Source: Clostridia bacterium
GTDB taxonomy: Bacteria; Bacillota; Clostridia; Oscillospirales; CAG-272
Assembly (NCBI GenBank): GCA_017416185.1
Contig: JAFQDF010000012.1
Location: forward strand, 32,965 to 96,964
Length of the DNA stretch: 64,000 bases
Reading direction: 5' to 3'
A program made the position numbers and the translations under genes. Positions 46,575 to 49,691 of this stretch are shown here, in pieces. The notes under the pieces are model-generated. The model was not told where the DNA came from, searched no databases, and saw only the letters and a program-made list of their open reading frames with translations. The stretch's first letter is position 1, and every line of letters begins with the position of its first letter.

Positions 46575-46845
46575 TGCAATGATCAGAAACTAGTAAATTC
46601 GGATAGAATCTGGAGAGAGCTGTCGGTTGGTGCGAGACAGAGAGGAAACCGTTTTGAATTCATTCTGTAGCAGTGCGCTGAACAAGAGTGATCTTAAGTA
46701 GGATGCAACGGTTGTCCCCGTTACAGGACTAAGGTATGTCAGTACCTGACAAGGCCGCTACCGTGAGATAGCGGTAAACTGAGGTGGTACCACGGGATAA
46801 GATTTCTCGTCCTCTGTATTCTTTAGGAATGCAGAGGACTTTTTG
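46575..46845 (+). promoter_or_regulatory. T-box leader, specifier codon UUC (Phe)
   Basis: AUGA/CUGA K-turn, AGUA...GAA S-turn, AGAGAG bulge and GGUGCGA distal loop. The specifier loop reads GAA-UUC-A (UUC at 46659-46661). T-box sequence AAACUGAGGUGGUACCACGG (46776-46796). Terminator GTCCTCTG...CAGAGGAC plus TTTTT (46809-46844). Confidence 0.85.
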
Positions 46846-46888
46846 TTTATCTGCTGACCTTCAATTCTATTCAGAAAGGGTGTTTATA

Positions 46889-48196
46889 ATGGCACAGAAT
46901 TATTATCAAAAAGAAATTGAGACTATGTCCCGCGAGGATATGAAAAAGCTCCAGTCAGAAAAGCTGGTAAAACAGGTTAAGCACGTTTATGAAAACGTAC
47001 CTTATTACAAAAATCTTATGGATGAAAAGGGTGTTACACCCGATGACATCAAATCTATAGACGATCTGCACAAGCTCCCCTTCCTTACAAAGGCGGATCT
47101 AAGAGATGCATATCCCTACGGACTTCTTGCAAAGCCTCTCAGCGACTGTGTTCGTATCCAGTCTACCTCGGGTACTACAGGCCGCCGTGTAGTTGCATTC
47201 TATACGCAGAAGGATATCGACCTCTGGGAGGATTGCTGTGCCAGAGCCATCGTCGCGGCAGGCGGAACGAACGAGGACGTTTGTCAGGTTGCATACGGTT
47301 ACGGTCTTTTCACGGGAGGTCCCGGTCTTAACGGCGGTTCTCACAGAGTAGGCTGTCTGACGTTGCCTATGTCCTCGGGTAATACCGAGAGACAGATCCA
47401 ATTTATGACCGATCTTAATGCAACCATACTCTGCTGTACTCCTTCATACGCCGCATACATAGGTGAAACTCTTAAAGAACAGGGTTACAAGCCCGAGGAT
47501 ATTCCTCTGAAAGCGGGTATATTCGGTGCAGAGCCTTGGACCGAGGAAATGAGACGCGGCATTGAAGAAACATTAGGCATTAAGGCTTACGATATATACG
47601 GTCTTACCGAGACTAGCGGCCCCGGCGTATCCTTTGAATGCAGCGAGCAGACAGGTATGCACGTAAACGAGGACCATTTCTATGCAGAGATAATCGACCC
47701 CGATACCGGTGAGGTACTTCCCGAAGGCTCTAAGGGTGAGCTGGTATTTACCTCTCTTGATAAAGAGGCGTTCCCACTTCTCAGATACCGCACCCGTGAT
47801 ATATGTGTTCTTTCCCGTAAGCAGTGCTCCTGCGGACGTACCCTTGTTAAGATGGCTAAACCTATGGGCAGAACGGACGATATGCTTATCATCCGCGGAG
47901 TAAACGTATTCCCCAGCCAGATCGAGACCGTGCTTCTTAAGGAAGGCTATGAGCCTAACTATCAGATAATAGTTGACCGTGTAAACAACAACGATACCTT
48001 TGAGGTTAAGGTTGAAATGACGCCCGAGCAGTTCACCGATAAGGTAAGCGAGATCCTCGGTATGGAAAAATCTCTTGCAGGTGCTCTTAAGGTTATGCTG
48101 GGTATCAACCCCGCAGTCAAGCTGGTTGCTCCCAAGACCATCGCCCGCAGCGAAGGCAAGGCTGTACGTGTAATAGACAAGAGAAAACTTATATAG
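46889..48196 (+). CDS. paaK: Phenylacetate-CoA ligase family adenylate-forming enzyme
   Basis: STSGTTGRRV AMP-binding motif and PaaK-like N-terminus (YYQKEIETMSREDMKKLQSEKL). Start at 46889. The ORF-track start at 46784 lies inside the T-box leader. Confidence 0.85.
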   Translation: MAQNYYQKEIETMSREDMKKLQSEKLVKQVKHVYENVPYYKNLMDEKGVTPDDIKSIDDLHKLPFLTKADLRDAYPYGLLAKPLSDCVRIQSTSGTTGRRVVAFYTQKDIDLWEDCCARAIVAAGGTNEDVCQVAYGYGLFTGGPGLNGGSHRVGCLTLPMSSGNTERQIQFMTDLNATILCCTPSYAAYIGETLKEQGYKPEDIPLKAGIFGAEPWTEEMRRGIEETLGIKAYDIYGLTETSGPGVSFECSEQTGMHVNEDHFYAEIIDPDTGEVLPEGSKGELVFTSLDKEAFPLLRYRTRDICVLSRKQCSCGRTLVKMAKPMGRTDDMLIIRGVNVFPSQIETVLLKEGYEPNYQIIVDRVNNNDTFEVKVEMTPEQFTDKVSEILGMEKSLAGALKVMLGINPAVKLVAPKTIARSEGKAVRVIDKRKLI

Positions 48197-48217
48197 GATT
48201 AAGAAGGGAGAAAAGAA

Positions 48218-48649
48218 ATGGCAATCAAGCAGTTAACAGTATTTGTTGAAAACAGACAGGGTACTATGGTATCCATAACCGACACACTTTCAAAGCATAA
48301 TGTAAACCTGAGAGCATTATCTATTGCTGAGACCGAGGATTTCGGAATTCTCCGTCTTATAGTAAACGACGAGGAGACCGCAGAAAAGGTGCTTCGTGAG
48401 GAAGGCTATCTTATCAAGATAACCGATATAGTAGGTGTCAAGATAGGTGATGCTCCCGGTAAGCTCTCGGCAGCTCTTAAAGTCCTTGACGATAACAAGA
48501 TCAATATCGAATACCTCTACGCTTTTATGGCAAGAACCGAAAAGCACGCTTACGTTGTTCTCCGTGTTGAGGACAACGCAGCAGCAGAGTCCGCGCTTAC
48601 ACGTGCAGGCTTCCATCTTGTTACCGAGGCTGACGTAGCAAAGCTTTAA
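48218..48649 (+). CDS. ACT-domain protein
   Basis: 143 aa with two ACT-like halves (QLTVFVENRQGTMVSITDTLSKHNVNLRALS and IGDAPGKLSAALKVLDDNKINIEY). This is the typical partner gene of anaerobe paaK-like ligases. Confidence 0.75.
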   Translation: MAIKQLTVFVENRQGTMVSITDTLSKHNVNLRALSIAETEDFGILRLIVNDEETAEKVLREEGYLIKITDIVGVKIGDAPGKLSAALKVLDDNKINIEYLYAFMARTEKHAYVVLRVEDNAAAESALTRAGFHLVTEADVAKL

Positions 48650-48662
48650 AAGGAATAAAATT

Positions 48663-49691
48663 ATGCCGATGAATTTTCACCGCAAGCTCCCTATCCCTAA
48701 GGAGGTCAAGGAGGAGTTTGCACTTACAAAAGAAATGATAGACCAAAAGGCAAGGCGGGACGAGGAGATAAAAGCCGTTTTTGACGGAAGCTCTGATAAG
48801 TTTATACTTATCATAGGACCCTGCTCTGCCGACCACAGCGAGCCTGTGCTTGAATATATCTCAAGGCTGAAGCGTATAGAGGAACAGGTCAAGGATAAAA
48901 TAGTCATTATACCCCGTATATATACCAACAAGCCCAGAACCACAGGCAAAGGCTATAAGGGAATGCTCCATCAGCCCGACCCCGAGGCAAAGCCGGATAT
49001 GTACAAGGGGCTGGTTGCTATTCGTGAGCTTCATTTAGCGGCACTCCGCGACTACGGTTTTTCCTGTGCGGATGAAATGCTCTACCCCGAGAACTACCGA
49101 TATCTTTCGGATCTGCTTTCCTACGTGGCGATAGGAGCGCGTTCTGTTGAAAACCAGCAGCACCGACTTACCGCAAGCGGTATCGAAGCTCCCGTAGGTA
49201 TGAAGAATCCCACAGGCGGAGATATGACGGTTATGATGAACTCTATCGTTGCATCTCAGTCAAGCCACACATTCTTATACAGAGGTTGGGAGGTATCCAC
49301 CGACGGAAACCCCTACGCACATGCGATTTTAAGGGGATACGTGGACTTTTCCGGCAGAAGTGTGTCCAACTACCACTATGAGGACCTTCTGCACGTAGAG
49401 GAGCTGTATGAGGGTTCGGGGCTGGTTAATCCATCGGTTATAGTGGATACCAACCATAACAACTCCGGCAAGCAGTATCTTGAACAGATAAGAATAGCCA
49501 AGGACATCGTTCACAGCCGCAATCAGAATGACACTATCAAGCGATTGGTAAAAGGTCTGATGATCGAAAGCTACATCGAGGACGGTGCCTGTAAGGCAGA
49601 CGAGCATATCTTCGGTAAGTCTATCACCGACCCCTGTTTGGGTTGGGAAAAGACAGAGAGGCTTATACTGGATATAGCCGATAAATTGTAA
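48663..49691 (+). CDS. 3-deoxy-7-phosphoheptulonate (DAHP) synthase, class I-alpha type
   Basis: LIIGPCS and KPRTT motifs. 342 aa. Confidence 0.88.
   Translation: MPMNFHRKLPIPKEVKEEFALTKEMIDQKARRDEEIKAVFDGSSDKFILIIGPCSADHSEPVLEYISRLKRIEEQVKDKIVIIPRIYTNKPRTTGKGYKGMLHQPDPEAKPDMYKGLVAIRELHLAALRDYGFSCADEMLYPENYRYLSDLLSYVAIGARSVENQQHRLTASGIEAPVGMKNPTGGDMTVMMNSIVASQSSHTFLYRGWEVSTDGNPYAHAILRGYVDFSGRSVSNYHYEDLLHVEELYEGSGLVNPSVIVDTNHNNSGKQYLEQIRIAKDIVHSRNQNDTIKRLVKGLMIESYIEDGACKADEHIFGKSITDPCLGWEKTERLILDIADKL

Follow-up and report, generated by a model that had tools for sequence, protein, structure and literature searches.

The 64,000-nucleotide stretch of contig JAFQDF010000012.1 analyzed here (the window) carries on its forward strand a T-box leader with a phenylalanine specifier, followed by genes for a PaaK-family aryl-acid-CoA ligase, a double-ACT protein and a 3-deoxy-D-arabino-heptulosonate 7-phosphate (DAHP) synthase. 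This phenylalanine T-box probably controls an operon for the salvage of phenylacetate to phenylalanine combined with entry into the shikimate pathway. T-box leaders induce their downstream genes when the cognate tRNA is uncharged, and a gene induced by phenylalanine starvation would therefore be a supply gene, an argument on the direction of flux made apart from any enzyme assay. The leader and its expression platform comprise the following elements:

46530-46558, plus strand: sigma-70-type promoter-like site, TTGACA-17 nt-TAAAAT with TG before the -10 element (11 of 12 matches; a consensus match only)
46570-46817, plus strand: T-box leader RNA with Stem I, Stem II, IIA/B region, Stem III and antiterminator (RF00230 and leader alignment)
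46656-46662, plus strand: 3' side of the specifier loop, GAA-UUC-A (GAA 46656-46658, UUC 46659-46661, A 46662)
46782-46794, plus strand: conserved T-box sequence AGGUGGUACCACG (sequence and RF00230 alignment)
46809-46849, plus strand: intrinsic terminator, a 14-pair hairpin at 46809-46839 plus TTTTTGTTTA (terminator prediction)

The Rfam covariance model RF00230 matched the leader over its full length (model 1-219) with 114.7 bits and an E-value of 1.3e-24, compared to a gathering threshold of 93 bits. The promoter-like site sits 12 nt upstream of the leader. In the RF00230 alignment UUC-A falls at the codon position of the consensus, and direct reading of the sequence (GAA-UUC-A-UUCUG, 46656-46667) places a UUCUG strand directly 3' of the specifier A, closing Stem I against CAGAA. 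This layout of GAA, codon, purine and helix is presumably that of the glyQ Stem I crystal structures. Both distal motifs of Stem I, AGAGA and GGUUGGUG, match the RF00230 consensus. The UUC codon is predicted to pair with the GAA anticodon of tRNA-Phe, and UUC is the strongly preferred phenylalanine specifier among T-boxes (PMC7778990). Under the rule relating the T-box bulge to the tRNA discriminator end (TBDB, PMC7778990), an uncharged tRNA with discriminator A73 would base-pair through its 3' ACCA with the UGGU bulge (46785-46788). The 5' arm of the terminator hairpin overlaps the 3' arm of the antiterminator. With a score over the full model, a specifier loop accompanied by the distal motifs, and a UGGN bulge with a competing terminator, the leader has the anatomy of a canonical transcription-attenuating T-box riboswitch of predicted specificity for tRNA-Phe, from which we infer its read-through response.

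The leader is followed by the three genes and a closing hairpin:

46874-46880, plus strand: Shine-Dalgarno-like GAAAGGG, 8 nt 5' of the ligase ATG
46889-48196, plus strand: PaaK-family AMP-forming aryl-acid-CoA ligase, 435 aa, with AMP-binding (PF00501) and AMP-binding_C_2 (PF14535) domains
48218-48649, plus strand: ACT_8 double-ACT protein, 143 aa (PF19571)
48663-49691, plus strand: class I-alpha (AroF/G/H-type) DAHP synthase, 342 aa, DAHP_synth_1 (PF00793) at 155.7 bits
about 49703-49745: hairpin AAAATCACCCAAGTG-loop-CACTTGGGTGATTTT with A and T runs on either side (read by eye; the terminator scan did not call it)

The best NCBIfam match of the ligase was PaaK (TIGR02155) at 526.1 bits, under the equivalog cut-off of 646.3 bits; by profile, the protein is thus a member of the PaaK family and not a certified TIGR02155 equivalog. 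It was 46.5% identical to the Bacteroides thetaiotaomicron protein 4R1L and 48.5% identical, over 421 aligned residues, to Burkholderia PaaK1 (2Y27). By eye, the aryl pocket apparently differs from that of PaaK1 at one position, and no conclusion was drawn from it. Two other identities were rejected on score, coenzyme F390 synthetase (158 bits) and LuxE acyl-protein synthetase (30 bits), compared to 526 for PaaK. The ACT_8 protein passed PF19571 with 88.4 bits (gathering threshold 23.5; profile positions 1-140 of 141), and its nearest structure was PDB 2F06 (E = 1.4e-25). Kept beside the ligase both with and without a T-box, this protein is probably a regulatory subunit that binds amino acids or another small molecule, a role that is a guess. 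The DAHP synthase passed the aroFGH equivalog TIGR00034 (251.4 bits, cut-off 173.2) and matched PDB entries 6AGM, 1KFL and 5CKS with E-values of about 1e-51 to 1e-54. In AroG and AroF, and in yeast Aro3 and Aro4, one specificity position holds serine in the phenylalanine-type and glycine in the tyrosine-type enzyme. The aligned site of the window enzyme holds tyrosine (motif FLY, about residue 206), and its feedback effector is therefore not predictable from sequence.

Gaps of 21 nt (ligase to ACT_8) and 13 nt (ACT_8 to DAHP synthase) separate the genes, and the terminator scan predicted no plus-strand terminator between the T-box terminator and the end of the DAHP synthase gene. The hairpin at about 49703-49745 is likely a bidirectional terminator common to the operon and a convergent transporter gene, and the three genes are, as predicted from this arrangement, one terminator-bounded transcription unit. 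The sequence-only reading of this DNA had described a complete T-box leader with a GAA-UUC-A specifier and a phenylalanine codon at 46659-46661, preceding a unit of paaK-like ligase, ACT-domain protein and class I-alpha DAHP synthase. Each of these points was upheld: the leader by its full-length match, the codon by direct reading and the Rfam consensus register, with no other codon placed there, and the unit by profile matches, short gaps and terminators at both ends.

In order to place this arrangement among relatives, a genome scan was performed that yielded 80 species-level loci (L001-L080) from ruminant hindgut Clostridia, comprising metagenome-assembled genomes (MAGs) of Acutalibacteraceae and Oscillospiraceae with PaaK proteins 88-99% identical to that of the window. 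A homologous T-box preceded the paaK-ACT unit in 77 of the 80 loci. Two loci with no T-box detected (L049 and L060) have sequence cut by contig ends, and in L060 an SSF symporter gene lies directly 5' of paaK, as in L046. The specifier was UUC in 76 of the 77 orthologous leaders. The remaining leader (L024, 3652-3937) reads GAA-UGC-C, a cysteine codon one base from UUC, which could be a real change of specificity or an assembly error. A purine is usual 3' of the specifier codon in T-boxes; among the 77 paaK leaders the base corresponding to window position 46662 was A in 45 (including the window), C in 30 and G in one. An alignment of 78 orthologous leaders contained 58 predicted pairs, 22 with compensatory changes. 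The distal helix of Stem I and Stems II and III covary, and the terminator pairs are conserved (alignment columns 280-324). Conservation in 77 loci together with this covariation indicates that the switch is real and under selection. The ACT gene followed paaK in 79 of the 80 loci, an SSF symporter adjoined the paaK-ACT unit in nine, and in all, over 150 loci of metagenomes and MAGs contained the module. One MAG contained two different paaK-ACT loci, each with a phenylalanine T-box (L010 and L059; JAFOBC01 contigs 232 and 289), representing paralogues or mixed strains.

Genes behind the paaK-ACT core varied. DAHP synthase lay 3' of paaK-ACT in six cases (the window, L001, L021, L029, L044 and L055), and in L028 it lay between the T-box and paaK. 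Elsewhere the core was followed on the same strand by pheA (chorismate mutase/prephenate dehydratase), aroB and aroC (L041, L047, L050), and in other loci by pheA-aroB (L035), pheA alone (L022) or pheA-tyrA-DAHP synthase (L079). In L022, L035, L041 and L047 a gap of about 200-320 nt separates ACT from pheA, so co-transcription of pheA is not established there. The repeated, independent joining of phenylalanine and shikimate genes to the phenylalanine-controlled paaK-ACT core argues that the core serves phenylalanine supply.

A second line of evidence came from linkage to indolepyruvate/arylpyruvate:ferredoxin oxidoreductase (IOR; IorA and IorB). Oxidoreductases were sought by tblastn; the negative result of an iron-sulfur/thiamine pyrophosphate (TPP) regular expression was dropped, as the expression recognized only one of 38 genuine IorA proteins. 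In L006, iorA-iorB lies directly 5' of the phenylalanine T-box and paaK-ACT follows, with the promoter-like site kept before the leader. In L170 the order is iorA-iorB-paaK-ACT, with a PaaK 94% identical to that of the window. A search at the level of 50%-identity representatives was too coarse for intermediate PaaK relatives and only frameshifted fragments of about 75% identity served, as seed. When a PaaK fragment sharing about 76% identity with the window protein was used as the seed of a further scan, it uncovered a sister clade (L081-L160), mostly from human-gut metagenomes, whose PaaK proteins are 71-81% identical to that of the window. The gene order common in this clade was as follows, each denominator counting the loci whose flanks were long enough for a judgement:

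Position 1: SSF symporter (20 of 51) or AMP-ligase of 545 aa (11 of 51)
Position 2: IorA, 579 aa, with POR_N, TPP_enzyme_C and Fer4 domains (31 of 55)
Position 3: IorB, with POR domain (43 of 72)
Position 4: PaaK (query gene)
Position 5: ACT_8 (69 of 80)
Position 6: class I/II aminotransferase (16 of 49)

By predicted function, the series from symporter or ligase through IorA, IorB, PaaK and ACT_8 to the aminotransferase covers all the steps between an aryl acid and an aromatic amino acid, in either direction. Among the sister-clade loci, 76 had 400 nt or more of sequence 5' of paaK, and in none of them was a T-box sequence found at the usual place before the gene; L143 has one distant T-box-like motif, unconfirmed by Rfam. 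Within the window no SSF symporter or aminotransferase gene was linked to the ligase, and the window contained no tRNA gene.

MAGs of ruminant Clostridia commonly encode proteins 84-94% identical to the L006 IorA, and in them iorA and iorB usually stand behind the gene for a 546-aa AMP-ligase. In six loci a tyrosine T-box (GAA-UAC-A) leads into this operon, the leaders of L161 and L162 scoring 123.5 bits against Rfam:

Tyrosine T-boxes before the IOR operon: L161 3060-3294; L162 281-515; L169 269-535; L171 and L172 3047-3309; L173 810-1072

L165-L168 are otherwise syntenic with these loci and have a plain promoter instead. Tyrosine (UAC) T-boxes also precede the SSF symporter gene next to paaK in L020 (1666-1913) and L074 (1689-1959), and in L046 (2135-3978) the SSF gene lies inside the phenylalanine T-box unit, in the order T-box, SSF, paaK, ACT. 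The SSF symporter is accompanied by a divergent LysR gene instead in L010, L021, L026 and L079. By its gene context, the SSF-family symporter is a candidate aryl-acid importer. Three pathway components (ligase, IOR operon and symporter) are thus each found under aromatic-tRNA sensors in the ruminant lineage.

Under the proposed mechanism, uncharged tRNA-Phe(GAA) accumulating at phenylalanine scarcity would pair through its anticodon with the UUC specifier in Stem I and through its free ACCA end with the UGGU bulge, stabilizing the antiterminator over the terminator at 46809-46839 so that RNA polymerase would read on. The induced ligase would activate imported phenylacetate to phenylacetyl-CoA while the induced class I-alpha DAHP synthase would open the de novo shikimate route. 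Phenylacetyl-CoA would then be reductively carboxylated to phenylpyruvate by an IorAB encoded elsewhere in the genome, and phenylpyruvate transaminated to phenylalanine. The synthesis of phenylalanine from phenylacetate by rumen microbes has been described (PMC7356843), and the IOR-adjacent AMP-forming ligase of Bacteroides is an arylacetate-CoA ligase for which an anabolic role has been argued (PMC13285125).

Several observations weigh against phenylacetate salvage under phenylalanine control. The ligase lies below the PaaK equivalog cut-off and is less than 50% identical to characterized PaaKs, so that phenylacetate is unproven as its substrate. By tblastn, IorA, IorB and other 2-oxoacid:ferredoxin oxidoreductases were absent from the 64-kb window and from 79 of the 80 T-box-clade loci, L006 being the exception; a partner oxidoreductase in the genome of the window is therefore assumed. 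The IOR operon of relatives answers to tRNA-Tyr, not tRNA-Phe, which leaves the supply of IOR under pure phenylalanine starvation unexplained. L054 has a plain promoter before paaK, the sole clear case of this among the 80 loci, and the sister clade and L170 carry the iorAB-paaK-ACT genes without a T-box. Finally, only a minority of loci, in particular lineages, link DAHP synthase to the unit.

Some of these points would fit a ligase of broad or different specificity (4-hydroxyphenylacetate, indoleacetate, phenylpropionate or another acid) under the same phenylalanine T-box, with phenylacetate salvage as one role or a minor one. Such a ligase is consistent with the score under the equivalog cut-off, with the characterized IOR-linked ligases of Bacteroides and C. 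difficile, which use phenylacetate, 4-hydroxyphenylacetate and indoleacetate (PMC13285125), and with the tyrosine rather than phenylalanine T-boxes on the associated symporter and IOR operon. We consider it unlikely given that UUC is retained in 76 of 77 leaders, that the neighbors include the phenylalanine-specific pheA besides general aromatic genes, and that the separate 546-aa ligase of the IOR operon could handle other aryl acids. The lack of a T-box on the iorAB-paaK-ACT genes of the sister clade and L170 would also suit a catabolic ligase acting with IOR in phenylalanine fermentation, in which phenylacetate is released from phenylacetyl-CoA and the T-box is incidental or serves another purpose; IOR does yield phenylacetate from phenylalanine in Bacteroides, as cited in PMC13285125. 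Induction on lack of an amino acid runs counter to the needs of a degradative enzyme, however, AMP-forming ligases favor acyl-CoA formation (as argued in PMC13285125), and DAHP synthase, pheA, aroB and aroC are co-transcribed or adjacent, all of which makes a catabolic role highly improbable. There is scarcely any likelihood that the leader reads another tRNA through a shifted register in GAAUUCA (AUU for isoleucine, AAU for asparagine, UCA for serine) or has decayed to constitutive expression. One-base register shifts are considered in TBDB (PMC7778990), and C rather than a purine follows the codon in 30 of 77 orthologues, but in the Rfam alignment the consensus codon falls on UUC-A, the same loci hold paralogous T-boxes that read UAC, CUC or AUC in this register before fitting genes (LeuA-like for CUC), the GAA-codon-A layout presumably matches glyQ Stem I, and the strong conservation and covariation speak against decay.

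Phenylalanine control of phenylacetate salvage and shikimate entry also bears on three broader claims of the sequence-only reading. That phenylalanine shortage would switch on the ligase and DAHP synthase together fits the window, where both belong to one unit, and does not carry over to relatives, among which that arrangement is in the minority. A T-box before a paaK-type ligase had been called unusual, which is accurate across clades (none at the usual place in 76 sister loci) and inaccurate within the window's own clade, where it is the rule (77 of 80). The suggested anabolic role of the ligase gained support from the pheA, aroB, aroC, tyrA and DAHP synthase neighbors, the iorAB-paaK-ACT operons and the tyrosine T-box on the IOR operon, from which we infer substrate and direction.

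T-boxes of further specificity occurred in the same loci. Apparent isoleucine T-boxes, with AUC followed by A or G and no GAA before it, were seen in L018 (8411-8170, minus strand), L051 (807-1046), L060 (5121-4879, minus strand) and L066 (5835-6074), ahead of a gene for a 766-771-aa fusion of HTH_3, Cupin_2 and AMP-ligase. The best NCBIfam match of the ligase part was the branched-chain acyl-CoA synthetase MbcS at 446 bits (cut-off 850), and the fusion protein may activate 2-methylbutyrate for isoleucine synthesis. Just 3' of paaK-ACT, seven loci had leucine T-boxes (GAA-CUC-A; CUG in L030):

Leucine T-boxes: L009 5708-5952; L012 4736-4979; L024 3518-3277 (minus strand); L030 5892-6140; L046 5874-6116; L049 1953-2197; L064 5843-6080

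These precede a gene for a LeuA-like protein (HMGL-like and LeuA_dimer domains, below the isopropylmalate-synthase cut-offs) and then one for an AMP-ligase fusion. The N-terminal domain of this fusion appeared TIM-barrel-like in a look at the sequence alone, without a Pfam check. In its makeup the leucine unit parallels the phenylalanine unit, each joining a putative salvage ligase to a first de novo step. Some units place the first committed de novo enzyme beside the salvage ligase, namely DAHP synthase or pheA with paaK-ACT and the LeuA-like protein with the leucine ligase. Tentatively, and at slightly less than even odds, we propose for these ruminant-gut Clostridia a distributed T-box regulon for acid salvage, in which shortage of each amino acid would induce a CoA ligase for reductive carboxylation of the matching fermentation acid. 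Its proposed members would be PaaK-ACT for phenylalanine, AMP-ligase-IorAB and the SSF symporter for tyrosine, the MbcS-like fusion for isoleucine, and the LeuA-like protein with its ligase fusion for leucine. If true, this regulon would for the first time account, in genes and regulation, for the rumen pathways from volatile fatty acids to amino acids that were described physiologically in the 1960s.

Methanogens make aromatic amino acids from aryl acids with IOR and an AMP-forming arylacetate-CoA ligase. The iorA-iorB-paaK clusters of Bacteroides (PMC13285125) share with the window unit the ligase family, the IorAB linkage (in L006, L170 and the sister clade) and a proposed anabolic sequence, whereas in the window the ligase and ACT genes stand apart from iorAB, behind a promoter-like site and a tRNA-Phe switch of their own, and are joined to a shikimate gene. 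Burkholderia cenocepacia PaaK1 and PaaK2 (PDB 2Y27, 2Y4N, 2Y4O) and the PaaKs of other aerobic phenylacetate degraders resemble the window ligase in fold family and length. In contrast, they open the aerobic catabolic paa pathway, no paa gene is present in the window, and the regulation in the window suggests the reverse direction. The feedback-specialized DAHP synthases of E. coli (AroG, AroF and AroH) belong to the same class I-alpha family as the window DAHP synthase and likewise have one isoenzyme dedicated to one aromatic amino acid; in the window the dedication would lie at the RNA level, through the T-box.

Compared to the amino-acid T-boxes of Firmicutes, the leader has the same Stem I specifier, T-box sequence and competition of antiterminator and terminator, with uncharged tRNA inducing supply genes, and DAHP synthase and pheA are ordinary kinds of target. 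The difference lies in the first regulated genes of the window, a PaaK-type CoA ligase and ACT_8. Surveyed examples include tryptophan T-boxes before trp operons and, in the Bacillus cereus group, T-boxes for tyrosine biosynthesis and phenylalanine hydroxylase (Wels et al. 2008, PMC2494555); CoA ligases and phenylacetate are not mentioned in that 2008 survey of T-box-regulated genes. A literature search found no paper joining a T-box with phenylacetate-CoA ligase, bacterial paaK, phenylacetate metabolism, indolepyruvate or IOR, the survey of Vitreschak et al. 2008, which may list such a target, being outside its scope. As an RNA the leader is ordinary; the novelty lies in the paaK-ACT module under its control and in what this control implies for the physiological direction of the module.

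The formation of phenylalanine, leucine and isoleucine from phenylacetate and branched-chain fermentation acids by anaerobes of the rumen and gut is long established. To our knowledge, few of the genes for these routes, and little of their control, have yet been assigned in Firmicutes. Phenylacetate is also the precursor of the host-relevant metabolite phenylacetylglutamine. The T-box, together with linkage to iorAB, symporter and aminotransferase in relatives, names a testable gene set for phenylacetate salvage and is relevant to the question of whether the IOR/PaaK systems of the gut produce phenylacetate or use it up. The main value of the results lies in functional annotation of the PaaK-ACT module.

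Two further riboswitches and a transporter gene were identified elsewhere in the window:

22886-22970, plus strand: ZMP/ZTP riboswitch, 64.2 bits, 5' of a purine-biosynthesis gene block
49756-51408, minus strand: Na_H_antiporter/NhaC-family transporter, 550 aa, convergent with the T-box operon
51419-51612, minus strand: lysine riboswitch, 54.9 bits (Rfam), before the NhaC-family transporter gene

The 550-aa NhaC-family protein is presumably a lysine transporter. The purine block behind the ZMP/ZTP riboswitch encodes AIR synthase-type, AICARFT/IMPCHase, GARS and FGAM synthase proteins and a formate-tetrahydrofolate ligase. On the minus strand, positions 52969-63978 encode an FAD-binding fumarate-reductase-like flavoprotein, several 4Fe-4S proteins, an MvhD/FlpD-like subunit, an HdrA-like protein and a CCG-domain (HdrB-like) protein, then fumarase and malate dehydrogenase; this block may be a flavin-based electron-bifurcating fumarate reduction system. 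Three very large open reading frames were present, at 9439-12567 (minus strand, 1042 aa), 35034-42158 (plus strand, 2374 aa) and 42306-46415 (plus strand, 1369 aa), the last ending just 5' of the T-box promoter-like site. Flg_new (Listeria-Bacteroides repeat) domains occur in the 1042- and 1369-aa products, which are probably proteins of the cell surface.

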